From Alphaproteobacteria bacterium (GTDB lineage: Bacteria > Pseudomonadota > Alphaproteobacteria > UBA828), in NCBI GenBank assembly GCA_963667785.2, contig CAXXMU010000002.1:640001-704000 (forward strand): a stretch of 64,000 nucleotides of DNA. Reading direction: 5' to 3'. Positions 24,446-62,883 of this stretch are shown here, in pieces. The notes under the pieces are model-generated. The model was not told where the DNA came from and searched no databases. It saw only the letters and a program-made list of their open reading frames with translations. A program made the position numbers and the translations under genes. The stretch's first letter is position 1. Each line of letters begins with the position of its first letter.

Positions 24446-25893
24446 GGGCCGTCCGGCCGGCCGTTGCCGCCCGCAGCCCCCTTGCCGCGGCTCTCGCCCG
24501 CGCCCGGCTCGCGGTCGAGCACCCCGAGCGAGCGGAGCTTGCGGTGGAGCGCCGAGCGCTCCATGCCGACGAACTGGGCGGTGCGCGAGATGTTGCCGCC
24601 GAAGCGCGCGACCTGGGCGTTGAGGTAGTCCCGCTCGAACTGGCGGCGGGCGTCGCGCAGCGGCAGCATCATCATGTCGGCCTGGCCGGGCAGCGAATCC
24701 GCGTGGCCGGTCGCCGGCCCCAGCGCCGCCGGGATCATGTCGGCGCCGATCGACTGGCCGGGCGCGGCCTGCGCCATGATGAGCAGCCATTCGACGAAGT
24801 TGCGGAGCTGGCGCACGTTGCCCGGCCAGTCGAACGACTGCAGCATCGCCATCGCGTCGTCGCCGATCTCGCGCGGGGGGGAGCCGGCGCTTCCCGCCAC
24901 CTGGTCGATGAAGAAGCGCGCGAGCGCGGGGATGTCCTCGCGCCGGTCGCGCAGCGCGGGCACCTCGATGGGGCTGACCAGCAGCCGGTAGTAGAGGTCG
25001 CTGCGGAAGCGGCCCTGGGCGATCTCCGTCTCCATGTCGCGCGTGGTCGCCGCCATGACGCGGATGTCGACCTCGATCTGCTGCGAGCCGCCCTCGCGCT
25101 CGAAGGTGTGCGCCTGCAGGGCGCGGGCGATCTTGCCCTGGGTCTCCAGCGGCATGTCGGCGATCTCGTCGAAGAAGAGGGTGCCGCCGTGGGCGCGTTC
25201 GAAGGTCCCGATCTTGCGCGAGCGCGCGGCGCCGCGCCCTTCTCCCTCGCTGCCGAACAGCTCCATCTCGACGTGGTCGGGCCGCATCATCGCGGCGTTG
25301 GCCACCACGAAGGGGCCGGCGGAGCGGCGCGAAAGGCGGTGGACGAGGCGCGCGACCAGCTCCTTTCCCGAGCCGGCCGGACCGGAGATGAAGATGCGCC
25401 TGTCGGTCGGCGCCGCGCGCTCGGCCGCCATGCGGGTCTGCCTGATGGCCGCCGACGAGCCGATCAGCTCCGTCATCGTGTTGGTGCGCTGCTTCAGCTC
25501 GGCGACCTCGCGCCTGAGCTCCGCCGCCTCCAGCGCGCGCGCGACCGTGAGCAGCAGCCGGTCGCTGTCGAGCGGCTTCTCGATGAACTCGTAGGCCCCC
25601 TTCTTGATGGCCGTGACCGCGGTGTCGATGGTGCCGTGCCCGCTGATCATGATGATCGGCACCTCGGGGTGGCTATGGGTCACCGCCTCCAGCACGTCCA
25701 TGCCGTCGAGCTCGCTCCCCTCCAGCCAGACATCGAGGATGAGGAGCGCCGGCGGCGGCCCGGAATCGATCGCAGCCAGCGCGGCCGCGCCATCGGCCGC
25801 GTCGCGCGGCGCGTAGCCGCCGTCCTCGAGGATGCCGGCCACCGATTTGCGGATATAGGCCTCGTCGTCGACGATCAGGATGTCGCGGAGCAT
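24442..25893 (-). CDS. ntrX: Response regulator NtrX (REC-AAA+-HTH)
   Basis: REC domain; Walker A GPAGSGKE; no GAFTGA motif; HTH 'GNISRTAQFVGMERSALHRKL'. Confidence 0.93.
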   Translation of the reverse strand: MLRDILIVDDEAYIRKSVAGILEDGGYAPRDAADGAAALAAIDSGPPPALLILDVWLEGSELDGMDVLEAVTHSHPEVPIIMISGHGTIDTAVTAIKKGAYEFIEKPLDSDRLLLTVARALEAAELRREVAELKQRTNTMTELIGSSAAIRQTRMAAERAAPTDRRIFISGPAGSGKELVARLVHRLSRRSAGPFVVANAAMMRPDHVEMELFGSEGEGRGAARSRKIGTFERAHGGTLFFDEIADMPLETQGKIARALQAHTFEREGGSQQIEVDIRVMAATTRDMETEIAQGRFRSDLYYRLLVSPIEVPALRDRREDIPALARFFIDQVAGSAGSPPREIGDDAMAMLQSFDWPGNVRQLRNFVEWLLIMAQAAPGQSIGADMIPAALGPATGHADSLPGQADMMMLPLRDARRQFERDYLNAQVARFGGNISRTAQFVGMERSALHRKLRSLGVLDREPGAGESRGKGAAGGNGRPDGP

Positions 25894-48766: not shown

Positions 48767-49471
48767 CTAGCCGCCCATGCCGACGAACTCGGCGACCAGG
48801 TCGGGATCGGAAAGCTGCCCCGGCGCCACCTCGCTGGTGAACTGCCCGCGCTGGATGATGAGCACGCGCTGCGAGAGCTCCGCGATGAAGTCGAGGTTCT
48901 GTTCGACCAGCACGACGGTGAGCTTGCGTCGGGCCTGCAGGGTCTTGAGGATCTCGACGATCTCTTCGACGATCGAGGGCTGGATGCCTTCGGTCGGCTC
49001 GTCGAGGAGGACGAGGCGCGGGCGGGCGCAGAGGCAGCGCGCGAGAGCCAGGATCTGTTGCTCGCCGCCGGAGAGCACCCGGCCGGCGCGGTCCAGCAGC
49101 GGCTTGAGCCGGGGGAACTCCTCGAGCACCTCCTCGAGCACCTCCTGCTCGTCGACCTTCTGCACCGCCAGGCCGAGCCTGAGATTGTCGCGCACGCTGA
49201 CGTTGGGGAAGATCTCGCGTCCTTGCGGCACGTAGCCGATGCCGCGCCGGCTGCGCTTGTGCGGCGGCTCCCGGGTGATCGTCTCTCCCTCGAAGGTGAT
49301 CGAGCCGTCGGTGGTCTTGACCAGGCCGATCAGGGTCTTGAGCAGAGTCGTCTTGCCCATCCCGTTGTGGCCCAGGATGCCGACGAACTCGCCCTCGGCG
49401 ACCTCGAGGTCGATGCCGTGCAGGATGGGGATCCTGCCGTAGCTCGCGCGGATGCCTTCGGCGTTCAGCAT
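48767..49471 (-). CDS. ABC transporter ATP-binding protein (UrtE/LivF-like)
   Basis: GHNGMGKT, LSGGEQQ, 'LDEPTEGIQPSI'. Confidence 0.92.
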   Translation of the reverse strand: MLNAEGIRASYGRIPILHGIDLEVAEGEFVGILGHNGMGKTTLLKTLIGLVKTTDGSITFEGETITREPPHKRSRRGIGYVPQGREIFPNVSVRDNLRLGLAVQKVDEQEVLEEVLEEFPRLKPLLDRAGRVLSGGEQQILALARCLCARPRLVLLDEPTEGIQPSIVEEIVEILKTLQARRKLTVVLVEQNLDFIAELSQRVLIIQRGQFTSEVAPGQLSDPDLVAEFVGMGG

Positions 49472-49474
49472 CGC

Positions 49475-50247
<773 letters not shown>

Positions 50248-50251
<4 letters not shown>

Positions 50252-51303
50252 TGCGCCGCCTCCCGCCCTCTCCCGTCGCCTGCGCCGTCTGCGCGCAGCA
50301 TGGGCAGATAACGCTCGCCGAGCTGGCGCGCGGTCGGCAGCAGCCCGGCCGGCACCAGCAGGACGAACAGCATAATGATCCCGCCGAAGATGAGATAGGT
50401 GTTGGTGATCTGCTGCTGGCCGATCTCGAACTTCAGCATGAGCAGCCCGATGCAGCCGATCATCGGCCCGACCAGGGTGCCGAGCCCGCCGATCAGCGTC
50501 CACATGATGATCTCGGCCGCGAAGTTGAGAGCGAACACGTCGGGGTTGACGAAGGAGTTGAAGTTGACGCCGAGGCAGCCGGCGAGGCCGGCCATGGCGC
50601 CGCCGATGGTGAAGGTCTGCAGCTTGTGCAGGCGGACGTCGTAGCCGAGCAGCTCGGCGCGCAGCTCGTTCTCCCTGATCGCCACCGCGACCCGGCCGAA
50701 ATGCGAGCGGTTGAGGAGCTTGAGCCCGAAGTAGCACGCGATCAGGCAGAACATTGAGAGATGGAATATTTCGTCCGGCAAGAGCCAGGCGCTGCCGTCT
50801 CCCGGCCAGTTGATGGGCTGGATCGACGAGATGCCGTTGAAGCCCATGAGCCGCTGCGCGCCGATGACGTATTCCTCGCCGGCCGTCGAGCGCATGAAGT
50901 TGTAGAGGATGAGGGTGACGGCGAGCGTCACCACCGCGAGATAGACGTCGCTGAGGCGGCCGTAGAACATGAAGTAGCCGAGCAGCGCGGCGAAGGCGCC
51001 GGGCACGACAATCGCGAGCAGGAAAGGCGCGGTACTCTCGCCGATATTGCCCACCGCGATCGCATAGGTGTAGGCGCCGAGGCCGTAGAACGCCGACTGC
51101 CCGAAGCAGAGGATGCCGCCGTAGCCCCAGATGAAGCCCATGGAGAGCGCGAGGATCGCCATGGCGACGAAGAGCGTCACCTTGAAGAGCAGGAAGAGGT
51201 CGAAGATGTGCGGCCCGGCGAACAGCAGCACCACCATGGCGATCCCGACCAGGATGGTGCCCCAGGTCTCCCAGTTCCGCAGGTTGACGCCGAGCACCGT
51301 CAC
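50248..51303 (-). CDS. ABC transporter permease (UrtC/LivM-like)
   Basis: 'WGYGGILCFGQ', 'AIRENELRAELLGY', multiple transmembrane segments. Confidence 0.9.
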
Positions 51304-52169
51304 AGCGACCGCCTGAAGATCTTGCCGGTGATGCCCTGGGGCAGGAGCCTGAGCAGCACCACGGCGACGATGAGCAGCCCGACGCCGCCGAGCACCGGGG
51401 TGAACTCGTAGCTGAGAAGCTGGCGCACCGTGCCGAAGACGCCGGAGGCGACCAGCGTACCGGTCACCGCGCCGGTGCCGCCTGTGATGACGGTGATGAA
51501 GGTCTGGGCGACGTAGGCCGCGCCTGCCGTCGGGATGACCTGCGAGATCGGCGCCAGCAGGCCGCCCGCGAGCCCCGTCAGCGCGGCGCCGAGCGCGAAC
51601 GTCACCATGTAGACGCGCTGCGTGCTGATGCCGAGCACCGAGGCTTGCGCCGGGTTCTGCATGGTGCCGCGCGCGATCAGGCCGAGCTTGGTGCGGGTCA
51701 GCACCAGGAAGATGCCGATGAAGAGCAGGATCACGATGCCGATGAGCACCATGCGGTACTGGGCGACGTTGTAGATGCCGACCTCGAAGCTCCCCATCGG
51801 CGCGGACACGCCTTCGATGATGTTGCCGAAGATCGCTGTCACGATGCCGATCAGCAGCAGGCTCAGCCCCCAGGTGGCGATCAGCGTGTCGATCATCCGG
51901 CCGTAGAAGAAGCGGATGAAGGCGCGCTCCACGATGATGCCGATGATGCCGACGACGATCGGCGAGATGATCAGCATCGAGATCCAGATGTTGATGCCCA
52001 GCGTCTTGGTGCAGACGACCGTGGTGTAAGCGCCGAGCATCATGAACTCGCCGTGGGCGAAATTGATCACCCGCATCATGCCGAAGATGATCGCCAGCCC
52101 GGCGCAGGCGAGCGCCAGGCTGGCAATCCCGTTCAGCACTTCGATGATCAGGAGCGCGGCGGTATCCAC
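51300..52169 (-). CDS. ABC transporter permease (UrtB/LivH-like)
   Basis: 'GLAIIFGMMRVINFAHGEFMMLGAY'. Confidence 0.92.
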   Translation of the reverse strand: MDTAALLIIEVLNGIASLALACAGLAIIFGMMRVINFAHGEFMMLGAYTTVVCTKTLGINIWISMLIISPIVVGIIGIIVERAFIRFFYGRMIDTLIATWGLSLLLIGIVTAIFGNIIEGVSAPMGSFEVGIYNVAQYRMVLIGIVILLFIGIFLVLTRTKLGLIARGTMQNPAQASVLGISTQRVYMVTFALGAALTGLAGGLLAPISQVIPTAGAAYVAQTFITVITGGTGAVTGTLVASGVFGTVRQLLSYEFTPVLGGVGLLIVAVVLLRLLPQGITGKIFRRSL

Positions 52170-52226
52170 GGCGCGCCCGTCGTCAAGCGTGCAGTCGCTC
52201 TCGCTTCGCTGCGGTTCGCGTGACGC

Positions 52227-53474
52227 CTACAGGTTGGGGCCCAGGTGGGCGTTCATGTCCGGCGTCTTGGTGAGGTCGCAGCGGTCGATCACGTCGCTCG
52301 GGTACATCTGCGAGTAGCTCTCGAAGATGTTCCAGGTCTGGTTCTGGCACTCGGCCATGTGCATGTCCTGGATGACGTGGTTGGTGACCGGGTCGACCAC
52401 CATGTGGCCGGCCGGGCCGTCCCAGGCGATGTCGCCGCTGCGCAGCGCCGTCATCACCGCCTCGCGCTCGTGGCTTCCGGCCGCCTTGACGCCGAGCGAC
52501 CAGAGCATGGTGCCGAGGTAGCCGCCGATGCCCACCGAGTTGAGGTACTGGGCGTCGTCGCCGAAGCGCTCCTGGTAGCGCTTGACGAAATCGACGTTGG
52601 CGGGGAGCTGCAGCTCCTGGAAGTAGGGCTGGGCGCTGACGATGCCGTTGCCTTCCTCCGCACTGAGCTGCACGTGCTCGTTGCCGACGCCGAAGGTCAC
52701 CGAGACGATCGGAATCTCGTTCAGCATGCCGGCGGCGTACCACTGGCGGTAGAAGCCGGTGTGCGCCGCGCCGACCAGGCAGGTCGAGAGCCAGTCGGGC
52801 TTCGCTTCCTGGATCTTGGCGATGGCCGGGCCGAACTCGGCCACGTCGAGCGGGAAGAAGTCCTTGGTGACGACCTCGGCGCCGTGCTCGCGCGAGAAGA
52901 ACTCGGTCCACTGGCCGATGATCTGCGGCGCGTTGTAGTCGGCGCCGATGTAGTAGCAGCGCTTGCCGTGGGTCTTGAAGCCGTAGTCGGCCATCGGCTT
53001 CACCCACTGCACGGCGGTCACGCCGCTGACGAAGTTGTTGATGTCGCAGACGCCGCCCTCGTAGATCACGCTGTACCAGAGCAGCGTCTGGAAGCGCCTG
53101 AGGATCGGCCGGATCACCTCGCGGGACGCGCTGGTGATGCCGCCGTGCACCAGGTCGACGCGCTCCTTCAGCGCCGCCTCCTGGGCGTACTGCGCGTAGA
53201 GCTCCATGTTGGACTGCGGGTCGTACTTGATCAGCCGCACCTTCTTGCCGAGCAGGCCGCCGGCCGCGTTGATCTCCTCGACCGCCAGCTCGCAGGTCTG
53301 GGTCATCGGCGTGCCGTAGATGTCGAGCCCGCCGGACTGGTCGAAGATGCTGGCGATGACGATCTCGTCGTCATCGGCATAGGCCTTGGGCGATGCCGCG
53401 AGGCCCGCCGCCACCAGCGTTGCGGCGGTGCCCGCCGTGCCCTTGAGGAAACCTCTCCTGGTCGAATCGAACAT
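52227..53474 (-). CDS. Urea/short-chain amide-type ABC substrate-binding protein (UrtA/AmiC-like), Tat-exported
   Basis: Twin-arginine signal 'TRRGFLK'; 'EINAAGGLLG', 'GGITSASREVIRP', 'YEGGVCD'. Confidence 0.88.
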   Translation of the reverse strand: MFDSTRRGFLKGTAGTAATLVAAGLAASPKAYADDDEIVIASIFDQSGGLDIYGTPMTQTCELAVEEINAAGGLLGKKVRLIKYDPQSNMELYAQYAQEAALKERVDLVHGGITSASREVIRPILRRFQTLLWYSVIYEGGVCDINNFVSGVTAVQWVKPMADYGFKTHGKRCYYIGADYNAPQIIGQWTEFFSREHGAEVVTKDFFPLDVAEFGPAIAKIQEAKPDWLSTCLVGAAHTGFYRQWYAAGMLNEIPIVSVTFGVGNEHVQLSAEEGNGIVSAQPYFQELQLPANVDFVKRYQERFGDDAQYLNSVGIGGYLGTMLWSLGVKAAGSHEREAVMTALRSGDIAWDGPAGHMVVDPVTNHVIQDMHMAECQNQTWNIFESYSQMYPSDVIDRCDLTKTPDMNAHLGPNL

Positions 53475-53579
53475 GAGCTCAAGCTCCTTGGCTGTTCCGC
53501 GAACGCGCTCCCTCCGCGCCCCGGCGGAAGGTTAGGCGCAGCGCGTCGCCGGCGCAATGTCGGGGCGCACCTTCGGCAC

Positions 53580-54746
53580 CTAGCGGGCGAAGCCGAGGGT
53601 GCGCTCGACGAAGGCGTGCAGAATCAGCGCCGCATCCACCATCTCGGCGAGCGGCACGAACTCGTTGGCGGCATGGCTCACGGCGCCGTCGCCGGGACCG
53701 AAATTCACGATCTCGATGCCGTCGCGGGCGAAGAAGCGTCCGTCGCTCGCGGCGAGCGCGTTGAGCACCGCCGCCGGCCTGCCCTGGTGCTCCTCGATGG
53801 CCACCGCCAGCGCCGAGACGAAGGGGCCGTCCAGCGGCGCGGAGAAGCCGTCGGTGCCGACGGGGCGGCGCACGGTGTAAGAGCCTGCAGGCTCACCGGC
53901 ACCGGCCAGCACGGCCTCCATCTCGGCCGCTGCCGTCTCGACAGGCTCGTTCGGCAGCAGGCGCCGGTCGATCCGGGCGATGCAGCGGTCGGGCACCACG
54001 TTCGGGTTCTCGCCGCCGTGGATGGTGCCGATGTTCATGGTCGAGACCTTCTCGCCGCTGCGCCTCGCCGCGAGTCGCGGCCCGAGTTCGGTCCGGAGCC
54101 GTTCGAGCAGGCGCATCATGCGGAGAATGGCGTTGTCGCCGGCCGGCGGGTCGCCGCCGTGGGCGGCCCTGCCGGCAGTCTCGATCTCGAGCCAGAGGAT
54201 GCCGCGCTCCTCGACGATGAGCTGGTTCTCGGTCGGTGCGCCGAGCACCAGCGCGTCGGGCGCGATCAGCCCCTCCTCGCGGAGGTACGCGGTGCCCTCC
54301 GGGCCGAGGCGCTCCTCGTCGCCGGCCAGCACAAAGACGAGGCTCCCCCGCGCCGGCCCGCCGCGCCGCGCCGCCTCGCCCGCGAGCCAGAGATGCACCG
54401 CCGCCGAGCCCTTGCAGTTGTTGGCGCCGAGTCCGTAGACGCGTCCCCCCTCCATGGTCGCGGCGAAGGGATCGGTGCGCCAGGCGGCGCGGTCCCCGGT
54501 GGCGACCGTGTCGATGTGGGCGTTGAAGACGACGCAGGGCGAGCCCTCGCCGAGCCGCGCCACCAGGTTGGCGATCGGCGGCGTACGCATCGGCATCGAG
54601 ACTGCGCAGCCGGCCGCCTCCAGATGCCTCGCCGCAGCCGCGCAGACCGCCTGGGTGTCGCCCGGCGGCGTGACCGACGGGATCGCGATCAGCTCGGCGA
54701 GAAGGCCGTGCAGCGTCTCGGCGAGCGGGGCGGCCGGGTCCGTCAT
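53580..54746 (-). CDS. M20 family metallo-amidohydrolase (ArgE/DapE-like)
   Basis: 'NAHIDTV', 'YGLGA', 'DEE', 'GRAAHG', 'NVVPD', 'HAANE'. Confidence 0.88.
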   Translation of the reverse strand: MTDPAAPLAETLHGLLAELIAIPSVTPPGDTQAVCAAAARHLEAAGCAVSMPMRTPPIANLVARLGEGSPCVVFNAHIDTVATGDRAAWRTDPFAATMEGGRVYGLGANNCKGSAAVHLWLAGEAARRGGPARGSLVFVLAGDEERLGPEGTAYLREEGLIAPDALVLGAPTENQLIVEERGILWLEIETAGRAAHGGDPPAGDNAILRMMRLLERLRTELGPRLAARRSGEKVSTMNIGTIHGGENPNVVPDRCIARIDRRLLPNEPVETAAAEMEAVLAGAGEPAGSYTVRRPVGTDGFSAPLDGPFVSALAVAIEEHQGRPAAVLNALAASDGRFFARDGIEIVNFGPGDGAVSHAANEFVPLAEMVDAALILHAFVERTLGFAR

Positions 54747-55648
54747 GCTTCTGCCGCCGCGCCTGCGTCCGCGCGGGTGATCGTCGCGTCGGTCAGCGAG
54801 CGCGCATCGCGCGCTGGCCAGCGGCCGTTCTCAACCTGTGCGAAGAACGACGCGCAGGCCTGGTTGAACGCGTCCGGCTCCTCGAGATTGATGGTGTGGC
54901 CGGTTTTGGGGAGCACCAGCAGGCCCGCCGCGGGGATCGTGCGCTTGAGGTAGAGGTTGGCGTCGAGGCAGGGCTCGTCCTCGTCGCCGGTGATGAGCAG
55001 CGTCGGCACGGCGAGCGTGGCGAGGCCCTCTTCCAGGTCGTAGAGCGACGGGCGGCGGGCCTGCACGCCCCGCAGAGTGTTGGCGGTGCCTCTGGCGGAA
55101 TGCTCTGCCAGGCTGTCGCGGAAGGCGGCCCAGCCGCGCGGGTCCTTGGTCTCGAACTGCACGCGCGTCGGCCCCAGCGCGTAGTCGGCGCCGACCGGGG
55201 CCGCGCCCTCCCTGTCGAGACGGTCCGCGACCGCCTCCGTCTCGCGGCGGAACCCGTCCCGGGCTCCCTTCGGCGCGCCGTAGCCGCAGCCGGCCACGAC
55301 CAGCGCCGTCGCGCGCGCCGGATGCGCAAGGCCGAGATGGAGGGTAGCGAAGCCGCCCATGCTGAGCCCCACGACGTGGGCGCGCTCGATGGCGAGATGG
55401 TCGAGTACGGCGATCGCGTCCGCCACCGCGAGGGCCTGGCTGTAGGCGTCCGCGTCCGCCGGCACGTCCGATGGCGGATAGCCGCGGGCGTTGTAGGCGA
55501 CGCAGCGGTAGCGCCGCGTGAAGTGGCGGAGCTGCGGCTCCCAGCTCCGGTGATCGCCCGCGAATTCGTGGATGAAGAGCAGCGGATGGCCGCTGCCGGC
55601 CTCTTCGTAGTAGAGCCTGGTTCCGTCCGGGGACGGCGCATGGGGCAT
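54743..55648 (-). CDS. Alpha/beta hydrolase
   Basis: 'HEFAGDHRSWEPQ', 'ARGYPPS', GLSMGG, 'GDEDEPC', 'GHTINLEEP'; start may be 55648, 55657 or 55675. Confidence 0.87.
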   Translation of the reverse strand: MPHAPSPDGTRLYYEEAGSGHPLLFIHEFAGDHRSWEPQLRHFTRRYRCVAYNARGYPPSDVPADADAYSQALAVADAIAVLDHLAIERAHVVGLSMGGFATLHLGLAHPARATALVVAGCGYGAPKGARDGFRRETEAVADRLDREGAAPVGADYALGPTRVQFETKDPRGWAAFRDSLAEHSARGTANTLRGVQARRPSLYDLEEGLATLAVPTLLITGDEDEPCLDANLYLKRTIPAAGLLVLPKTGHTINLEEPDAFNQACASFFAQVENGRWPARDARSLTDATITRADAGAAAEA

Positions 55649-55710
55649 GGCTGACATTCCTCTGGCGCGGCCCATGATAGCGGACCGGCGGGGCGCGAGT
55701 CCCCGTTTCG

Positions 55711-55757: not shown

Positions 55758-56714
55758 ATGTGCGGGATAGCAGGCGTGATGTTTAAGCACGGAGAGACGG
55801 GCTTGTCGGCGGGTCGGGCGCTGATCGACATGCTGGACGGCTGTCAGCACCGTGGTCCGGATTCGACGGGCTTTGCGCTGTACGAAGAGGCGCGTCCTGG
55901 CGAGCTCAGGCTGCGCTTCCTGGTTGAGGAGGATGCGGACGGCGCGGGCAACGGGTCCGGCGGCGGCGTGGGCCACAACCGCGACGCAGAGGGCGCGATC
56001 GCGGACATCCGCTCGGAGCTCGAGGCGCACGGGGCGGAGATCGTCGACGACGAGCGGGTGGGCGACAGCTACCGCGTGGTGGTGCGCTTTGCCGGCGACG
56101 TGCAGAAGCTCACCTACGACATGGAGCACGCGGGCACGCTGATCTCGATCGGGGAGAGCCTCGACATCCGCAAGGACGTGGGCGGCGCGCACGACGTGGA
56201 CGAGCGCTTTCACGTGCGCGAGGTGCAGGGCACGCACGGGCTGGGCCACGTGCGACTCGCGACGGAATCGGAGGTGAAGCCGGAGGCGGCGCACCCGTTC
56301 TGGGCGACGGGGTTCACGGACATCGCGATCGTGCACAACGGCCAGATCACGAACTACTGGAAGATGCGTCGCCGTCTGGAGCGTCGCGGCTTCGAGTTCC
56401 ACACGGACAACGACAGCGAGCTGATCGCGGTCTATCTGGCGGACAAGCTCGCGAACGAGGTTCCGCTGGAGGAGGCGCTCAAGACTTCGATCGACGATCT
56501 CGACGGCACCTTCTCGTTCCTGGTGTCGACCAGGGACGAGATCGGCTACGCCAAGGATCATCTCGCGGCGAAGCCGATGATCATGTACGAGAACGACGAT
56601 CTGATCGCGATCGCCTCGGAGGAAGTCTCGCTGAACCGCCTCTTCCCGGGCCGCGCGCTGGATACCAGAGAACCGCCGCCCGGGAGCTACGGTACATGGT
56701 CCAGATCGACCTAG
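55758..56714 (+). CDS. Class II (Ntn) glutamine amidotransferase, GlxB/MgsA/GltB1-like
   Basis: N-terminal MCGIAG (catalytic Cys2), 'HRGPDSTG', 'HVRLATES', 'HPF', 'HNGQITN', 'TDNDSE'. Confidence 0.88.
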   Translation: MCGIAGVMFKHGETGLSAGRALIDMLDGCQHRGPDSTGFALYEEARPGELRLRFLVEEDADGAGNGSGGGVGHNRDAEGAIADIRSELEAHGAEIVDDERVGDSYRVVVRFAGDVQKLTYDMEHAGTLISIGESLDIRKDVGGAHDVDERFHVREVQGTHGLGHVRLATESEVKPEAAHPFWATGFTDIAIVHNGQITNYWKMRRRLERRGFEFHTDNDSELIAVYLADKLANEVPLEEALKTSIDDLDGTFSFLVSTRDEIGYAKDHLAAKPMIMYENDDLIAIASEEVSLNRLFPGRALDTREPPPGSYGTWSRST

Positions 56715-58654
56715 GACGGGTCTCCGTCCGCGACGCCAACGAGCAGATCCGCGAGTACGGTGCGAAGGGGGAGGACATCGAGGTCCTCAACCCCGACGCG
56801 CGCCATCATATCGGCGTCGGCCTGATCCACCCGGTTCGGGTGCACGTGAAGGGCTCCGCCGGCTACTTCTGCGCCGGCCTTGCGGACAAGGCGCGCTTCG
56901 AGATCGAGAACAACGTCGGCTGGGGCCTGGGCGACAACATGTACGCGGGCACGGTGACGGTGCGCGGCAACGCAGGCGCGATCGCGGGCGTGGCGATCCG
57001 GGGCGCGGAGATCGTGGTGCACGGCAATGTGGGCTCCCGCGCCGGCCAGGTGATGAAGGAGGGGACGCTCTGCTGCGCCGGCAACGCCAACTTCATGGCG
57101 GGCTACATGATGTATGGCGGGCGCATCATCATCCTGGGCGAATCGGGCGAGCGGGTCGGCGAGGACATGGCGGCGGGCAAGATCTACATCGGCGGCGCGG
57201 TGCGCTCGCTCGGCTCCGACGCCGAGCTCTCCGACATCGCCGAGGCCGAGCTCGACGACGTCCGCGCCTTCCTCGACCGCCACGAGATCGCCTTCAAGGG
57301 CTCTTTCAGCAAGGTGGTGAACGCGGGCAAGCGGCTGCGCTACGCGACCAGCGAGCGGCAGGTGCGCAGCATCCCCTTCTTCACCTTCTCGGGCGCGTCC
57401 GAGTACTGGAACCCGAAGGTGCAGGAGGACGTCTACATCAAGTCCCAGATCGGGCGCTACCGGGTGCGGGGCTACGGCGGGGCGCGGGCGCTGCCGCATC
57501 TCTCGGATCTGGCGTTCCGGCGTGATCTCTCTGCCGCGGGCACCGCCGGCGACCCGGTGGCGGCGGTGGAGATGCGGACCGAGATCGGGGGCCTGAACGG
57601 GGCGAAGCCGCTGAAGCTCTCGATGCCGGTGATGATCGCGCCGATGAGCTACGGCGCGCTCTCGCGCTCCACCAAGCAGGCGGTGGGAATGGCGTCGTCG
57701 ATGGCGGGCATCGCCGAGAACACGGGCGAAGGGGGGATGAGCGACGCCCAGCGGGGCGCGGCGGAGCAGCTCATCTTCCAGTGCCTCGGCGGCCGCCTGG
57801 GCTGGAACATCCACGACATGAACCGGGCGGACGGGCTCGAGATCTATATCAGCCAGGGAGCCAAGCCCGGCTTCGGCGGCCAGTTGATGGCGAAGAAGGT
57901 GACGAAGGAGCTGGCGACGATCCGGGGGATCCCGGAGGGGATCGACCTGCGCTCGCCCTCGCGCCATCCGGACATCCTCGGCGCCGACGACCTGGTGATC
58001 AAGGTGGAGGAGTTCCGGGAGGCCACGGGCTACCGCATTCCGGTGAGCGTGAAGCTGGGCGCGGGCCGCGTGCGGGACGACGTGAAGATCGCCTACAAGG
58101 ACGGCTTCGACTTCGTCGAGCTGGACGGGATGCAGGGCTCGACGGGCGCCGGCGGGGCCGAGGTGATGGAGCACGTGGGCGTGCCGACGCTGGCGGCGAT
58201 CACCCAGGCGATCGCGGCGCTGGAGGAGGTCGAGGGGCTCGGCAAGATGCAGCTCGTGCTGATGGGGGGCATCCGCGACGGGATCGACGCGGTGAAGGGC
58301 CTCTGCCTCGGCGCGGACGCGGTGGCGATGGGCACGGCCGTGATCATCGCCGGCGGCTGCATCGCCTGCATGCAGTGCCACGTGGGCCAATGCGTGACCG
58401 GGATCGCGACCCAGGATCCCGAGCACGAGCGGCGCTACAACCCGGTGGCGGAAGCCCGCAACATCCACCGCTACCTGGAGGGGGTGCGCTGGCAGATGGC
58501 GGCGCTGACCCAGGCGCTCGGCTACGGCAGCACCACCGAGCTCTGCCGCGACGACCTGGTGGCGCTGACCCGGGATGCGGCGGAGATGACGGGGCTTCCT
58601 TACGCGCCGGAGTATCGCGCCAGCGAGCAGGCGCTGCAGGGCAGGATGGGCTGA
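56696..58654 (+). CDS. Fusion of GXGXG beta-helix and FMN-binding glutamate synthase domain (GlxC-GlxD/MgsB-MgsC-like)
   Basis: N-terminal Gly-rich repeats ('GSAGYFCAG','GNVGSRAG'), then 'MSYGALS', 'NTGEGG', 'QGAKPGFGG', 'RHPD', 'GGIRDG', 'CIACMQCHVGQC'. Confidence 0.88.
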   Translation: MVQIDLGRVSVRDANEQIREYGAKGEDIEVLNPDARHHIGVGLIHPVRVHVKGSAGYFCAGLADKARFEIENNVGWGLGDNMYAGTVTVRGNAGAIAGVAIRGAEIVVHGNVGSRAGQVMKEGTLCCAGNANFMAGYMMYGGRIIILGESGERVGEDMAAGKIYIGGAVRSLGSDAELSDIAEAELDDVRAFLDRHEIAFKGSFSKVVNAGKRLRYATSERQVRSIPFFTFSGASEYWNPKVQEDVYIKSQIGRYRVRGYGGARALPHLSDLAFRRDLSAAGTAGDPVAAVEMRTEIGGLNGAKPLKLSMPVMIAPMSYGALSRSTKQAVGMASSMAGIAENTGEGGMSDAQRGAAEQLIFQCLGGRLGWNIHDMNRADGLEIYISQGAKPGFGGQLMAKKVTKELATIRGIPEGIDLRSPSRHPDILGADDLVIKVEEFREATGYRIPVSVKLGAGRVRDDVKIAYKDGFDFVELDGMQGSTGAGGAEVMEHVGVPTLAAITQAIAALEEVEGLGKMQLVLMGGIRDGIDAVKGLCLGADAVAMGTAVIIAGGCIACMQCHVGQCVTGIATQDPEHERRYNPVAEARNIHRYLEGVRWQMAALTQALGYGSTTELCRDDLVALTRDAAEMTGLPYAPEYRASEQALQGRMG

Positions 58655-58657
58655 GCG

Positions 58658-61177
58658 ATGGCGGTTCCGGGCGAGATGGAGGCGGGCGGGCGGCTGCTGG
58701 CGGAGCTTCCGGACGACACCGACGACGCGCACTTCGTGCCGGCGCCGTGCCAGATCGCCTGCCCGGTGGGAACGGACGCGCCCTCCTATATCGCCTACAT
58801 CTGGGAACGGAAGTTCGCCGAGGCCTTCGAGGCGATCACGGCGACGAACCCGTTCAGCTCGATCTGCGGGCGGGTGTGCGATGCGCCGTGCGAGCCGGCG
58901 TGCCGGCGCACCGATTCCGACGGGCCGGTGCAGATCCGCAACCTGAAGCGCTTCGTCATGGACGAGGTGGGCCATGCCTACGACCCGCCGGCGGTGCCGG
59001 TGCGGCACGAGCAGAGCGTGGCGGTGGTGGGCTCGGGCCCGGCGGGGCTGACGGCGGCGCACGACCTCTCGGTGGCGGGCTACGCGGTGCACGTCTACGA
59101 GATGACGGACCGCCTCGGCGGCATGATGATCTGGGGAATCCCGGCATTCCGCCTGCCGCCGGGGATCATCCAGGAGGATATCGACCGCATGGCCCGGCGC
59201 TGCCCGGGGATGGAGGTGCATCTGAACACCGCGCTGGGGCGCGATGTGACGCTGGACGATCTCAAGGCTCGGCACGACGCGGTGGTGCTCGCCATCGGCG
59301 CGTGGTGGGGCAAGAAGATGGGGATCGCGGGCGAGGACGACCCAAGGGTGATCGACGGCGTGCAGTTTCTGCGCGACGTGAACGAGGGCGCGCGCCCCGA
59401 GATGCCGGAGACGGTGGTGGTGATCGGCGGCGGCGACGTTTCGATGGATGCCTGCCGGGTGGCGAAGCGCCTACCCGGCTGCCGCCACGTGAAGGTGATC
59501 TACCGGCGGGGGCCGGCGGAGATTCCGGCCCGCAAGATCGAGCTCGAAGGCGCGATCGAGGAGGGGATCGAGTTCGTCTACCACACCCAGCAGACGGCGA
59601 TCGTGCCGCAGGGCAACGGGCTCGCGGTGCGGTGCGTGACGACGACGCTGGGGGACCCGGACGAATCGGGCCGGCGCGCGCCGGTGAACGTGCCGGGCAC
59701 GGAGCACGACATTGCCTGCGGCATGGTGATCGCGGCGGTGGGCCAGGAGGGTCTCTGCGAGGACCTGGAGCGGCGCGGCATGATGGAGCCGGACCGGGTG
59801 CGGACCGCGTGGGAAGGCATGCGCACCAGCGATCCGCAGGTGTTCGCGGCCGGCGACGGGGCCTTCGGAGGCTCCACCATCGTCATGGCGATGAACCACG
59901 GCCAGCGCGTGGCCTACTACGTGAAGGCCTATCTGGAGGGGCGCGCGGAGCCGCTGCCCTACCGCACGCCCTACCGCACGCGGCGGGTGCCGGTGGCGCA
60001 GGACCTGGAGTGGGAGCTGCTGCCGGTGCAGCACCCGGACTTCCTCGGCCTCGGCGCGGACCCGGTGTCGTTCCCGGAGATCGAGACCACCTATGGCTGG
60101 GAGGCGGCGCGCAAGGAGGCGGCGCGGTGCTACCGCTGCGACGCGGAGACGGGCTCTGCCGACTACGCGGTGGGGCACCGGGAGGACATCTTCGTGATGG
60201 CGCGCACCGGGCCGGACGACACGGTGCGCCAGAAGGCGATGCTGGACAAGCGCATGGGCGAGCGCGACGACCCCTTCCCGGACGCGCTTCCGGGGGTGCT
60301 GGACGATCTCGCCTTCCTGCCGGCCAACCTCTCGCGGCTGGTGATCGACCCCTACCGCGAGGCCTGCCGCATCGGTACCACCGTGGGCGCGGTTGACCTG
60401 GCACTGCCCTTCCTGGTGACGGGCTTCGACGATGCACCGGACGAGGTGCGGGCCGCGGTGGCGCGAGGGATCGCGGAGGCGGACGCGAGCTATCTTGGGG
60501 TCAGGCCCGTCGGCACCGGCACCCGCTGGCTCCAGCTCGTGCTGCCGGGGCAGCTTGCGCCGAGCGCGGACGCGGCCGGGCTGATCCATGCGCTGGGCCA
60601 CCGCTTCCAGCCGGTGGAGGCGGCGAGGGCGGCGCCGGGCCAGGTGCTGGGGCTTGCCGTCTCCTCGCCCACGCTGCTGGAGGACGCGATCCCCTACGCC
60701 CTCGATCAGGGCTTCAACATGCTGCTGCTGGACGGCAGCGCCAGCCTCGGCGCGCCCTGGGCGGAGCTCGGCGGCGCGCCGGACCTCACCATCCTGCGCG
60801 ATGCGGTGGCGATCCTGCGCCGGCTGGACCGCGAGGAGGAGATCGACCTCGTCTACTTTGGCGGCGTGCGCTCCGGCACCGATGCGGCGAAGGTGATCGC
60901 TTTGGGCGCGGTCGCCGTGGTCCTCGGCGTCGCCGTGGGACTGGCTGCCGGCGGCGCTATCACCGGCACCCGCGAGCTCGCCTTCGAGGCCGACCGCAGC
61001 GACGAGGACCGCGCGCTCGGCACCGTCAACATCCTCAAGGCTACAGCCTCCGAAGCCTCCATGATGGCGCGCTGCACCGGCAAGACGAACCTCCAGAACG
61101 TCGAGCCCGAAGACCTGCGCGCTCTTACCGTCGCAACCGCAACCGCAACCGGTATCCCCCTCGCAGGCACAAAGTAG
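58658..61177 (+). CDS. GltD-like Fe-S/FAD NAD(P)H oxidoreductase fused to a degenerate glutamate-synthase FMN-barrel domain
   Basis: 'PCQIACP', 'CGRVCDAPCEPAC', GSGPAG, 'GIPAFRLP', GGGDVSMD, 'AAGD', 'ARCYRC'; C-terminal third has 'LDDLAFLPANLSR..DPYREAC' and 'GGVRSGTDAAKVIALGA'. Confidence 0.85.
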   Translation: MAVPGEMEAGGRLLAELPDDTDDAHFVPAPCQIACPVGTDAPSYIAYIWERKFAEAFEAITATNPFSSICGRVCDAPCEPACRRTDSDGPVQIRNLKRFVMDEVGHAYDPPAVPVRHEQSVAVVGSGPAGLTAAHDLSVAGYAVHVYEMTDRLGGMMIWGIPAFRLPPGIIQEDIDRMARRCPGMEVHLNTALGRDVTLDDLKARHDAVVLAIGAWWGKKMGIAGEDDPRVIDGVQFLRDVNEGARPEMPETVVVIGGGDVSMDACRVAKRLPGCRHVKVIYRRGPAEIPARKIELEGAIEEGIEFVYHTQQTAIVPQGNGLAVRCVTTTLGDPDESGRRAPVNVPGTEHDIACGMVIAAVGQEGLCEDLERRGMMEPDRVRTAWEGMRTSDPQVFAAGDGAFGGSTIVMAMNHGQRVAYYVKAYLEGRAEPLPYRTPYRTRRVPVAQDLEWELLPVQHPDFLGLGADPVSFPEIETTYGWEAARKEAARCYRCDAETGSADYAVGHREDIFVMARTGPDDTVRQKAMLDKRMGERDDPFPDALPGVLDDLAFLPANLSRLVIDPYREACRIGTTVGAVDLALPFLVTGFDDAPDEVRAAVARGIAEADASYLGVRPVGTGTRWLQLVLPGQLAPSADAAGLIHALGHRFQPVEAARAAPGQVLGLAVSSPTLLEDAIPYALDQGFNMLLLDGSASLGAPWAELGGAPDLTILRDAVAILRRLDREEEIDLVYFGGVRSGTDAAKVIALGAVAVVLGVAVGLAAGGAITGTRELAFEADRSDEDRALGTVNILKATASEASMMARCTGKTNLQNVEPEDLRALTVATATATGIPLAGTK

Positions 61178-61199: not shown

Positions 61200-61589
61200 A
61201 TGGGACGCATCGTCGTCGAGACGCGGATCACCAACCTCTTCGACGAGGACAAGTCCATCCGCTGCGGAATGCTCGTCGATACCGGAGCCGGCGCGCTGAT
61301 CCTGCCGGCGGCGTGGAAGGAACGGCTCGGGGAATTCAAGCGATCCGAGGCGGTCTCGCTTCAGCTTGCCAACCAAGACGTTCTCGAAGGGGAAGCATGT
61401 TGGCCCGTCGAAATCGAGATCGACGGGTTCCGCCCGGTGTCCAACGAAGTGATCTTCGTGAAGATGGAGGGTGAGGACGACGACGGTTACGAGCCGCTGC
61501 TCGGCACTGTCATCCTGGAACAGGCGCAGGCTGCGGTTGACCTCGTGGCGCATCGCCCGGTGCCCGTCAGGTACATCGACATGAAGTAG
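61200..61589 (+). CDS. Small clan AA (retropepsin-like) aspartic protease
   Basis: 'LVDTGA' catalytic motif, 'LAN' flap, 'PLLG..ILE'; lower GC than neighbours. Confidence 0.72.
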   Translation: MGRIVVETRITNLFDEDKSIRCGMLVDTGAGALILPAAWKERLGEFKRSEAVSLQLANQDVLEGEACWPVEIEIDGFRPVSNEVIFVKMEGEDDDGYEPLLGTVILEQAQAAVDLVAHRPVPVRYIDMK

Positions 61590-61593
61590 AGCC

Positions 61594-62883
61594 ATGCGCG
61601 TCCACCTCAACTACGGCCGGGGCATGCGGGCGGTCGATCTGCCGGATACGCTGGACCTCACCCTGATCGAGAAGCAGGCGATGCCGCCGCTCGCCCAGCC
61701 TGCTCTGGCCATGGAGGATGCGCTTGCCCGGCCCGTAGGCTGCCCGCCGCTCGCCGACGAGGCAGCGCAGGCGCGGCGCGTCTGCATCCTCATCTGCGAC
61801 TTCACCCGGCCGGTGCCCAACGGCACGATCCTGCCGCCTCTCGTCCGCACCCTGCTCGCCGCCGGGGTCGAGCCGGCGCGGATCACGGTGCTGGTGGCGA
61901 CCGGGCTGCACCGCCCCAACGAGGGCGAGGAGCTCGCCGCCCTGGTGGGCGATCCCTGGGTGTTGGAGACGGTGGAGGTGGCGAACCACTTCGCCCGGAA
62001 CGACGAGGACCACGTGCTGCTCGGCACCACCCGGCGCGGCACGGTCGTGCAGCTCGACCGGCGTTTCGTGGACGCCGACCTGCGCATCGCGACGGGCCTG
62101 GTGGAGCCGCACTTCATGGCCGGCTGGTCCGGCGGGCGCAAGGTGATCGCGCCCGGCGTCGCCCACGCGGAGACCATCACCACCTTCCACAGCGCGCGCT
62201 TCATGGAGCATCCCAACTGCACCAACTGCGTGCTGGAGGGGAACCCGCTGCACGAGGAGCAGCTCGAGATCATGGCGATGCTCGGCGGCGCCCGGGCGGT
62301 GAACAGCGTCATCGACGACGAGCGCCGCGTCGCCTTCCTCAACTACGGCGAGGTCGTGGCGAGCCACGAGGCGGCGGTGCGCTTCGCCGCACGCTACGCC
62401 ACGGTGCCTGTCGCCGAGCGCTTCAGCACAGTGCTGACGAGCGCCGCCGGCTACCCCCTCGACGCCACCTACTACCAGACGGTCAAGGGCATGGTCGGGC
62501 CGCTGGAGATCCTGGAGCCGGGCGGCGACCTCATCGTCGCATCGGCCTGTTCAGAAGGGCTGGGCTCGGCTCACTACGCCGACGCCCAGCGCCGCCTGGT
62601 GGAGCAGGGACCCGAGCGCTTCCTCGACGAGATCAGCGGCAAGACCCATGCCGCGATCGACGAGTGGCAGACCGAGATGCAGCTCCGCCCGATGCGGGCC
62701 GGCACCGTCCACCTCTTCACCGAGGGCCTCGCGCCGGAGGAGCGCGCGCTCACCGGGGTCCGGATGACCGAGTCGCTCGCTGGGGCCGTGGCCGACAGCG
62801 TCGCCCGGCACCGCGACAACCGCATCGCCGTGATCCCCGAGGGGCCCTACCTGGTGCCCGTCCACCGCCCCGACGCCGCGTAG
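61594..62883 (+). CDS. larA: Nickel-pincer-dependent lactate racemase LarA family protein
   Basis: 'DFTRPVP', 'ATGLHRP', 'NH', 'EPHFMAGWSGGRK', 'GYPLDATYYQTVKG', 'CSEGLG'. Confidence 0.88.
   Translation: MRVHLNYGRGMRAVDLPDTLDLTLIEKQAMPPLAQPALAMEDALARPVGCPPLADEAAQARRVCILICDFTRPVPNGTILPPLVRTLLAAGVEPARITVLVATGLHRPNEGEELAALVGDPWVLETVEVANHFARNDEDHVLLGTTRRGTVVQLDRRFVDADLRIATGLVEPHFMAGWSGGRKVIAPGVAHAETITTFHSARFMEHPNCTNCVLEGNPLHEEQLEIMAMLGGARAVNSVIDDERRVAFLNYGEVVASHEAAVRFAARYATVPVAERFSTVLTSAAGYPLDATYYQTVKGMVGPLEILEPGGDLIVASACSEGLGSAHYADAQRRLVEQGPERFLDEISGKTHAAIDEWQTEMQLRPMRAGTVHLFTEGLAPEERALTGVRMTESLAGAVADSVARHRDNRIAVIPEGPYLVPVHRPDAA

Follow-up and report, generated by a model that had tools for sequence, protein, structure and literature searches.

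Three adjacent genes in an alphaproteobacterial draft genome raise the question of what kind of glutamate-synthase-like enzyme they encode, and why the NAD(P)H subunit of that enzyme should end in a second, degenerate barrel. The genes, here called g1, g2 and g3, are co-oriented open reading frames (ORFs) that fill positions 55758-61177 on the plus strand of the window, by which we mean the whole 64,000-nucleotide (nt) stretch of DNA that was analysed; g1 and g2 overlap by 19 nt, and g2 and g3 are separated by 3 nt. A preliminary description, made from the letters of the sequence, had singled them out as three tightly coupled genes, and this is how we find them, with every motif quoted there present in the translations of the genes. 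We lean towards reading them as an NAD(P)H-coupled complex of the GlxBCD/MgsABC type that reductively aminates or alkylaminates 2-oxoglutarate, with the g3 barrel acting as an anchor.

55758-56714, plus strand: g1, a GlxB-type class-II (N-terminal nucleophile, Ntn) glutamine amidotransferase of 318 amino acids (aa) with an N-terminal Met-Cys (Pfam, identity, synteny)
56696-58654, plus strand: g2, a fusion of a GXGXG beta-helix (GlxC-like) with a catalytic flavin mononucleotide (FMN) barrel (GlxD-like), 652 aa (Pfam, motifs)
58358-58393, plus strand: Fe-S loop of g2, Cys 555, 558, 561 and 566 (C-x2-C-x2-C-x4-C), invariant in 30/30 sequences
58658-61177, plus strand: g3, a GltD-like Fe-S flavoprotein followed by a linker and a degenerate triosephosphate isomerase (TIM) barrel, 839 aa (Pfam, NCBIfam, homologues)

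The domain scan that had been proposed as a check returns GATase_6/GATase_7, GXGXG, Glu_synthase, Fer4_20 and Pyr_redox_2 on g1-g3 in Pfam, and none of the three proteins passes a curated NCBIfam equivalog model. The matches of g1 to GATase_6 (4.5e-20) and GATase_7 (7.9e-19), together with its Met-Cys start, agree with the Ntn glutamine amidotransferase that it had been taken for; the protein shares 42% and 36% identity with the amidotransferases from two split GlxBCD clusters of this genome, and 32-37% with GlxB of the classical GlxB-GlxC-GlxD-GlnT operons of four other genomes. In g2, the order of the Pfam matches (GXGXG at aa 32-166, then Glu_synthase, PF01645, at aa 303-610 with 298 bits) and the FMN-barrel catalytic motifs bear out the description of a beta-helix fused N-terminally to an intact FMN barrel, and mean column identity across 30 orthologues is 80%. 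Its four-Cys loop spans, in alignment, both the C-x5-C-x4-C pattern of GltB from the same genome and the C-x2-C-x4-C pattern of split GlxD paralogues. In GltB, the corresponding Cys loop binds a 3Fe-4S cluster. The front part of g3 matches Fer4_20 (aa 29-103) and Pyr_redox_2 (aa 120-415), and its first ~430 residues align with the GltD of the same genome (35% identity over 424 residues, tblastn), as expected of the GltD-like flavoprotein that had been described.

The remainder of g3 is where the locus departs from familiar architectures, and three parts of it can be told apart:

60302-60367, plus strand: pre-barrel motif of g3, aa 549-570 (DDLxFLPANLSRLVIDPYREAC), invariant or nearly so in 40 sequences
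60377-61057, plus strand: core of the degenerate TIM barrel, aa 574-800 (AlphaFold, fold matches, hhalign, alignment)
61052-61114, plus strand: C-terminal motif, aa 799-819 (E.SMMARCTGKTN..N.EPED), invariant in a 40-sequence alignment

The claimed homology of this tail to the Glu_synthase barrel is borne out by profile comparison: in hhalign, profiles built from 40 g3 tails and from 30 g2 proteins match with a probability of 98.1% (E 1.2e-13, 158 columns), pairing g3 aa 674-837 with g2 aa 459-637. Searched with tblastn, g3 finds three paralogue Glu_synthase barrels in the same genome (E 7e-14, 2e-11 and 1e-8). Against Pfam, the tail gives FMN_dh and Glu_synthase matches at aa 703-767 that stay below threshold (17.9 bits for PF01645, with a cut-off of 20.4), and its profile matches FMN-dependent hydroxyacid dehydrogenases at E 1.6e-5. 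In the AlphaFold2 model, aa 574-800 form a domain of alternating strands and helices with a predicted local distance difference test (pLDDT) mostly above 90. A fold search (VIA) with the tail places flavocytochrome b2 (Z 19.2, root-mean-square deviation 3.0, 230 aligned) and isopentenyl diphosphate isomerase type II (Z 19.2) ahead of GltB from A. brasilense (Z 17.1, 249 aligned) and the FMN domain of dihydropyrimidine dehydrogenase (DPD; Z 15.3). Foldseek returns the same FMN-barrel family, and a look-up in the ESM Atlas again gives kinship with Glu_synthase/FMN_dh.

The g3 barrel had been described as lacking MSxG, TGEGG, QGAKPG and the Cys cluster, and the alignment with related barrels agrees: MSxGALS, GEGG, QGAKPG, RHPD and the whole Fe-S loop are absent, and ~100 residues of the first half of the barrel are replaced. 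The tail retains the DG of strand 6 and an invariant motif of the phosphate-binding type, GGVRSGTDAAK...LG. Judged by its sequence, the tail is a degenerate relative of the Glu_synthase barrel, not a functional member of the family.

Its closest affinity appears to lie with the split GlxD proteins. The opening motif that g3 was said to keep is indeed present, but it is not shared with g2: the pre-barrel DDLxFxPAxLSR...YRExC and the C-terminal MMARxCGK...EPEDL are two end motifs common to the tail and to split GlxD paralogues, and both are lost in g2. A quick maximum-likelihood tree of 28 barrels puts all tails in a single long-branched clade within the split GlxD group and the g2 barrels outside it; the support is only moderate (87-89 in the Shimodaira-Hasegawa-like approximate likelihood ratio test), and long-branch effects are possible. 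The groupings within the g2 clade and within the tail clade match. These observations suggest that the g3 tail descends from split GlxD-type barrels, and it is better read as a degenerate GlxD copy that may act as a pseudo-dimer partner.

The preliminary description had instead made the dead barrel an equivalent of the GltB central domain, and this identification is not supported. Compared by hhalign with the central domain of GltB from its own genome, a single-sequence target that leaves room for very remote kinship, the tail profile displays no similarity (probability 0.07%, E 0.69), and the idea of the tail as a homologue of that domain was rejected; no match to PF04898 (Glu_syn_central) is found in g1-g3 at E <= 0.01, and the end motifs and the tree point to GlxD. 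The central domain of GltB is a non-catalytic alpha/beta domain packed against the FMN barrel. A likeness to it persists in that the g3 tail is likewise non-catalytic and is predicted to pack against an FMN barrel. In the fold search, the match to GltB (chain 6s6s_A, Z 17.1) runs over residues 485-1154 and does not discriminate between the central and FMN domains. Of the five modules that the locus was thought to supply in a new fusion pattern, the amidotransferase, the beta-helix, the catalytic FMN barrel and the GltD-like reductase are present, but an equivalent of the GltB central domain is not supported.

The other half of that proposal, a docking role for the dead barrel, is supported by structure prediction, if not for a central domain. 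In complexes predicted for full-length g2 with g3 aa 539-839, the tail docks on the catalytic barrel with an interaction prediction score from aligned errors (ipSAE) of 0.83, 0.83 and 0.84 in three runs, compared with 0.00 for the best of three controls; the ipSAE mark applied here is reached by 116 of 157 solved complexes and by 2 of 215 mismatched pairs. At least 85% of the contacts agree among the runs, and the pLDDT of the partners is at least 87. On the g3 side, the confident interface comprises aa 549 and 551-562 in the pre-barrel motif, 703-707, 736-741 and 745 in the phosphate-type motif, 787-808 and the last five residues; on the g2 side it comprises aa 232-255, 385-393, 422-433, 454-466, 487-504 and 626-632. 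Invariant positions of the tail are over-represented in it, 20 out of 48 lying at an interface that takes up 59 of the 301 positions (odds ratio 3.9). The most conserved stretches of the tail (aa 495-517, 542-571 and 803-821) have a pLDDT below 50 in monomer models, and motifs that are disordered in those models fall in the predicted g2 interface; the C-terminal motif lies partly in it, with aa 802-808. The monomer model of full g3 (predicted template modelling score 0.57) yields no domain arrangement for the protein. Taken as predictions, the complexes support binding of the g3 tail to the g2 barrel. Two stretches of the tail, aa 563-570 (60344-60367) and aa 807-819 (61076-61114), are disordered in the monomer models and may face g1, the beta-helix or the reductase part.

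The module is neither rare nor confined to one lineage. With g3 as the query, 2945 homologues come up at E <= 0.001. Among the 120 listed, identity is 67-92%, length is 803-869 aa and, with one exception, coverage of the query is 95-100%; those that carry a name from their source are annotated as 'FAD-dependent oxidoreductase', 'NADPH-dependent glutamate synthase beta subunit-like oxidoreductase' or 'glutamate synthase'. Scanning species-representative genomes with the g3 tail alone gives 232 relatives. The best 80 of these, all from metagenome-assembled genomes of uncultured bacteria, are the related loci referred to below; they come from Alpha- and Gammaproteobacteria (including Acidiferrobacterales), Planctomycetota, Acidimicrobiia, Thermoleophilia, Latescibacterota, Akkermansiaceae and others, with tail identities of 48-88%. 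The alignment to g3 begins at residue 30 or earlier, which indicates the full fusion, in 68 of the 80; 10 are cut by a contig end and 2 are partial, one near a contig end (L075) and one with the tail only (L038). Directly upstream of g3 stands g2 in 67/67 testable loci, with a gap of at most 139 nt in 66, and 55 loci have g2 in a single uninterrupted frame, aligned from residue 5 or before; g1 lies upstream of g2 in 54/54 testable loci. The survey of synteny proposed at the outset thus finds both fusions and the g1-g2-g3 order kept in the testable related loci. Out of 301 genomes sampled evenly across the class, 15, including the present one, carry the tail at E <= 1e-30, and they fall in 14 of 254 genera. 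The 1.4-Mb genome G035 of this sample has no match to the g3 tail at E <= 1e-30, and the neighbourhood of its GlnT gene holds an ammonium-transporter (Amt) gene and a split GlxBCD set. A gene list in PMC3870248 had suggested that SAR11 may carry the module.

Three of the related loci depart from the common pattern. In L058, an insert of 1.8 kb (1781 nt; L058:5768-7549) with a 484-aa ORF separates g2 from g3, the sole case among the 67. In L038 (8938-10014), the tail is present from the AARCxxC motif on, behind unrelated in-frame sequence, and neither g1 and g2 nor a reductase part turns up within 9 kb; the locus could reflect a rearrangement or a chimeric assembly, or the tail could be a gene in its own right. 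The loci L017 and L018 are two g1-g2-g3 copies on one chromosome, separated by ~1.6 Mb and not differing in their identities to the window, and the importer and hydrolase genes and LarA described further below accompany only one of the copies.

Set against known systems, g1-g2-g3 fails the defining tests of GltB, of GltD and of three-subunit MgsABC. With GltB and GltD it shares an Ntn amidotransferase, an FMN barrel with an Fe-S loop, a beta-helix and an Fe-S/FAD/NAD(P)H subunit (FAD, flavin adenine dinucleotide), and g2 carries the FMN-barrel motifs and Cys loop of GltB, the loop aligning to that of GltB from the same genome. By contrast, g1-g3 have no GATase_2 or Glu_syn_central domain at E <= 0.01, the beta-helix precedes the barrel, and the activities are split over three genes. 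The GltB model NF008730 gives 144.3 bits for g2, far below its cut-off of 1047, and the GltD models TIGR01317 and TIGR01318 give 202.1 and 248.4 bits for g3 against cut-offs of 447.7 and 482.95, which leaves g3 GltD-like only.

The nearer relative is N-methylglutamate synthase (NMGS), MgsABC (= GlxBCD, EC 2.1.1.21), whose names and reaction are given in PMC6237917 and PMC3160333. The GlxB-type amidotransferase, the GXGXG protein and the FMN barrel all recur in the module, and g2 is about 33-41% identical to the GlxC and GlxD that precede a TIGR03105 GlnT gene in four other genomes; the comparison was made with the GlxBCD genes of the genomes examined. However, MgsABC consists of three separate subunits without a reductase, whereas GlxC and GlxD are fused in g2, a protein that no longer has the GlxD end motifs and falls outside the split GlxD groups in the quick tree, and the third gene adds a GltD-like NAD(P)H/FAD/Fe-S reductase with a dead GlxD-like barrel. 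An adjacent TIGR03105 ligase and Mgd genes, which accompany MgsABC, are missing from this window; the ligase adjoins the module in 17 of the 80 related loci, and Mgd-like genes occur in 5. The reductant of N-methylglutamate synthase is stated as not known in PMC6237917. The system had been suggested to be uncharacterised, and in the literature outside subscription journals and supplements we found no description of a GltD-fused or GlxC-GlxD-fused system; 'fused' or 'fusion' mgs genes are not mentioned in PMC5023230.

The gene neighbourhoods fall into three recurring contexts. In a methylamine-type setting, here called context A, a glutamine-synthetase-family gene of ~435 aa directly follows g3 in 17/80 loci and lies elsewhere in an 18th (L038); the one ligase of this kind to be scored has 674.7 bits against a cut-off of 469.6 for TIGR03105 (type III glutamate-ammonia ligase). 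An ammonium-transporter gene is present in 8 of the 80 loci and a PuuR-like helix-turn-helix-cupin regulator in 6. In five loci, the ligase gene is followed by FolD and by genes of the sarcosine oxidase beta, delta and alpha families (Mgd-like), and one more locus has a formate-tetrahydrofolate ligase. The association extends beyond adjacency. Of the 301 genomes in the class sample, 46 have a TIGR03105 member over the cut-off, namely 14 of the 15 module carriers (the exception being a genome that is 79% complete) and 32 of the 286 non-carriers, counts that include related genomes, are not independent and are given as description without a test. GlnT adjoins g3 in 6 carriers of the sample. The resulting order g1-g2-g3-GlnT parallels the classical GlxB-GlxC-GlxD-GlnT (mgsABC-gmaS) order, which we see in four of five non-carrier genomes examined, the fifth having an Amt gene and a split set of a glutamine-synthetase (GS)-like gene and GlxBCD beside GlnT.

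Within 5 kb of the TIGR03105 gene, none of the 11 carriers examined (this genome and ten others) has a Glu_synthase barrel other than g2, two of them (G305 and G196) have GltB and g2 as their only barrels, and no classical mgsABC-gmaS operon is seen in the carrier genomes examined. The module thus takes the place of MgsABC beside, or in the same genome as, a GmaS-type ligase, and gene context and co-occurrence favour it as the partner of a GlnT/GmaS-type ligase. The simpler idea that the module replaces the only GlxBCD-type enzyme in methylamine-type loci was rejected, as a split GS-GlxB-GlxC-GlxD set is found nearby.

In the present genome, the partner genes of context A are all present but dispersed. 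The window had been noted to hold neither gmaS nor mgd genes, and this is confirmed, with matches over the cut-off on other contigs only; the preliminary description had asked whether the genome has them, together with gltBD, and a TIGR03105 member, Mgd-like genes and gltBD occur elsewhere in it. Canonical gltB/gltD lie on contig C8. The single TIGR03105 GlnT (C5:289390-290694) is 72% identical to the one of context A and is flanked by a short-chain dehydrogenase/reductase and a glucose-methanol-choline oxidoreductase gene. Mgd-like SoxB/D/A genes at C5:397479-402119 are 55-73% identical to those of context A, and an Amt gene on C6 is 65% identical.

In the reductive reading that we prefer, the proteins would work by a scheme modelled on glutamate synthase and on the glutamine synthetase/glutamate synthase (GS/GOGAT)-like scheme that PMC6237917 proposes for GmaS and N-methylglutamate synthase. 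The amidotransferase g1 would hydrolyse a gamma-glutamyl amide, either glutamine or an N-alkyl-glutamine from a GlnT/GmaS-type ligase, and the released ammonia or amine would pass to the FMN barrel of g2 and condense with 2-oxoglutarate. Reduction of the imine by FMNH2 would yield glutamate or an N-alkylglutamate. NAD(P)H would donate electrons to g3, where they would travel along the FAD and two [4Fe-4S] clusters before reaching the four-Cys cluster and the FMN in g2. The dead barrel of g3 would bind the g2 barrel like a dimer partner and so hold the reductase on the catalytic subunit. For context-A loci, the obvious candidate reaction leads from gamma-glutamylmethylamide to N-methylglutamate.

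Several observations weigh against this reading. The retained invariant motif of the phosphate-binding type could mean that the tail still binds a ligand. Of the 48 invariant tail positions, 28 lie outside the confident interface, including aa 563-570 and 807-819; the complex predictions used our own alignments, which makes their calibration rough, and the modelled complex holds g2 and the g3 tail but not the reductase part with its Fe-S clusters. The GlnT counts are subject to the dependence stated above. All five context-A genomes have a second barrel gene of GlxD size, and in the three of them with flanks fetched, a split set of a GS-like gene (~490 aa), GlxB, GlxC and GlxD lies 10-20 kb away on the same contig; the GlxD of this set is 84-89% identical to a GlxD on contig C1 of the present genome. 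Canonical GltB is present in this genome and in 4/5 context-A genomes, as it is in 10/10 further carriers, and a plain glutamate-synthesis role of the module would therefore be redundant. GlnT, Amt and Mgd genes are absent from this window, where an importer/hydrolase operon and a LarA homologue adjoin the module instead, and its substrate may therefore differ from that of the methylamine-type loci.

A broader version of the reductive reading is possible, though we hold it with considerable doubt: that this reductant-coupled N-alkylglutamate/glutamate synthase, together with GlnT/GmaS, forms a second widespread 'GS-GOGAT-like' cycle in marine and sponge-associated uncultured bacteria, that it replaces MgsABC as the partner of GmaS in its carriers, and that a dead paralogue barrel in the place of a homodimer partner positions the Fe-S wire. 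If true, such a cycle would move ammonium or small-alkylamine nitrogen onto 2-oxoglutarate without the release of free ammonia.

The alternative that survives best, though we judge it rather unlikely, is a second glutamine-dependent NAD(P)H glutamate synthase, a GOGAT isoenzyme that would form an alternative GS-GOGAT cycle with a GlnT-type glutamine synthetase and would have no role in alkylamine metabolism. All chemical modules of a GOGAT are present, the module is linked to a ligase of the GS family and in some loci to the ammonium-transporter gene, and SAR11 glnT genes stand among nitrogen-metabolism genes in PMC3870248. Such an isoenzyme would, however, be redundant with the canonical gltB/gltD of this genome and with the gltB of the other carriers counted above. 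The proteins g1 and g2 belong to the GlxB/GlxC/GlxD branch, not to GltB, and the FolD and Mgd-like genes of five loci and the formate-tetrahydrofolate ligase of one more point to C1 release from a methylated amine.

The same proteins might also run in the oxidative direction, as a catabolic dehydrogenase in which glutamate or N-alkylglutamate is deaminated on the FMN of g2 and electrons leave through g3 to NAD(P)+; this strikes us as improbable. The half-reaction of the classical N-methylglutamate synthase reportedly oxidises glutamate on FMN (Pollock and Hersh, cited in PMC6237917), GltD-type modules are reversible in principle, and the surroundings of the module in the window, with their hydrolases and importer, look catabolic. 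On the other hand, the Ntn amidotransferase with its N-terminal Cys is kept in 54/54 loci, which fits the delivery of an amine and not deamination, and Mgd-like dehydrogenase genes are already present in the methylamine-type loci.

We give still less weight to the idea that g3 is a self-contained DPD-like enzyme whose own barrel is catalytic and which is merely co-transcribed with g1-g2. Like DPD, g3 combines in a single chain an N-terminal Fer4_20, FAD/NADPH domains and a TIM barrel; the FMN domain of DPD is among its fold matches, the GGVRSGTDAAK motif is invariant, and the tail profile finds FMN-dependent hydroxyacid dehydrogenases. Yet the barrel is of the Glu_synthase/FMN_dh and not the DHO_dh type, no DHO_dh or C-terminal ferredoxin-domain match is found in g3 at E <= 0.01, and, apart from that motif, the tail lacks every flavin or substrate motif of its family along with the ~100 replaced residues of the first barrel half. 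Invariant residues of the phosphate motif lie in the predicted g2 interface, g3 is never found without g2 in the testable loci (67/67), and the subtrees of g2 and of the g3 tail show matching groupings.

That the fusions or the whole feature are assembly artefacts or decaying genes, a thought invited by the draft state of the genome (14 contigs, contamination estimated at 6.6%), is refuted by intact frames without the stop or frameshift that would split the fusions (GC content at third codon positions 0.88-0.95), by the recurrence of these fusions, at 48-94% identity, in 55-68 independent related loci that belong to several phyla, and by two ~1.2-kb contigs from other sequencing runs that span the reductase-barrel junction of g3 with 56-57 differences and no gaps. 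Contigs from sponge metagenomes carry near-identical pieces, for example with 0 differences in 275 and in 484 nt and 2 in 497 nt. One metatranscriptome run yields contigs 88-99% alike over the whole stretch, which could stem from DNA carry-over or from relatives and are not counted as transcription.

Since the module is closely related to N-methylglutamate synthase and has an NAD(P)H/FAD/Fe-S subunit of its own, a reductive version of the reaction of that enzyme becomes directly testable with three genes. With 232 relatives in species-representative genomes, a share of ~5% of the 301-genome class sample and thousands of metagenomic g3 homologues, the module is common, and reconstructions of nitrogen and methylated-amine pathways in marine and sponge-associated bacteria probably misassign it. 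To the extent that the predicted docking is right, it would also illustrate neatly how a pseudo-enzyme domain can be recruited to anchor a redox partner.

The reductase part of g3 shows a rearrangement of its own, and two features belong to it:

58742-59902, plus strand: reductase module of g3, an Fe-S domain (aa 29-103; Cys 31, 35, 70, 74, 78 and 82) and FAD/NAD(P)H Rossmann domains (aa 120-415) (Pfam, conservation)
60116-60154, plus strand: displaced AARCxxC half-motif (AARCYRC, aa 487-494; Cys 491 and 494), located after the Rossmann domains, invariant in 40/40 sequences

Among NCBIfam models, PRK12771 (392 bits) and PRK12814 (379 bits) match g3, each under its cut-off. The Cys residues and GxGxxG glycines of the reductase module are invariant in homologues, and g3 retains the glycine motifs of the two Rossmann folds, together with the YRR stretch that follows the second. 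In GltD of the same genome, the first cluster motif begins N-terminally as ARCxxC...CxxxC, and the N-terminus of g3 has only the last two of these Cys (31 and 35). By alignment, Cys 491 and 494 are the displaced first half of this GltD cluster motif, and the displaced half probably completes the first [4Fe-4S] site of g3. An extra Fe-S site formed by the four invariant residues Cys 491, 494, 570 and 806 was considered and rejected as the leading idea, because Cys 491 and 494 belong to the displaced GltD motif and because Cys 570 and 806 sit in the split-GlxD motifs without a CxxC partner.

Around the module, the window contains two further features of the gene neighbourhood:

48767-55675, minus strand: divergent neighbour operon with an alpha/beta hydrolase, an M20 ArgE/DapE-type deacylase, a urea/amide-type binding protein, two permeases and ATP-binding cassette (ABC) ATPases (Pfam, NCBIfam)
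61594-62883, plus strand: homologue of the LarA family of (nickel-pincer) 2-hydroxyacid racemases (Pfam Lar_N and LarA_C; Ni_dep_LarA 333 bits, cut-off 460)

Both belong to what we call context C, shared by this window and its closest relatives, in which the hydrolase, M20 and urea/amide ABC importer operon diverges from the module and the LarA homologue lies downstream. In context B, the order is g1-g2-g3, the LarA homologue, a DHA2 major facilitator superfamily gene and a GlpD-like flavoprotein gene. The genes for the binding protein, the M20 protein and the hydrolase stand together beside the module in 7/80 related loci (L012-L017 and L029); one or two of these three are found in six more (L024, L031, L034, L048, L056 and L088), and the binding protein with the M20 gene in L052. 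The divergent operon is a lineage-specific context, outside the core module. The LarA homologue follows g3 in 18 of the 80 loci. Between g3 and this gene lies a 129-aa ORF (61200-61589, plus strand) with weak matches to retropepsin-like aspartyl proteases (24.9 bits), which recurs in a single related locus (L014, 1/80) and probably represents an insertion specific to the lineage. At window positions 24442-28163 on the minus strand, some 28 kb upstream of the module, are genes for an NtrY-like sensor kinase and an NtrX-like sigma-54 activator, with GlnS-type tRNA synthetase and HflX genes nearby.

The genome encodes further systems built on the same domains. At C1:836545-841587 (L009:6482-11587), a GS-like gene (~490 aa, under the TIGR03105 cut-off) is grouped with split GlxB, GlxC and GlxD genes and a gene for a ~130-aa protein without a Pfam match; the GlxD of this set shares 79-89% identity with its counterparts in four unrelated genomes (G002, G004, G005 and G035), and this system coexists with the module. 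Another split GlxB/GlxC/GlxD cluster, at C2:99693-102690 (L008:7693-10690), has no GS-like gene beside it and is flanked by two amidase genes and by nitronate-monooxygenase-like, DUF3830/cyclophilin-like and asparaginase genes. On C5 (L010:8285-12084, minus strand), a Rieske [2Fe-2S] domain is fused to a Glu_synthase FMN barrel in a protein of 584 aa, next to genes for a ferric-reductase-like membrane protein that also contains a Rieske domain and for two members of the homocysteine S-methyltransferase family.

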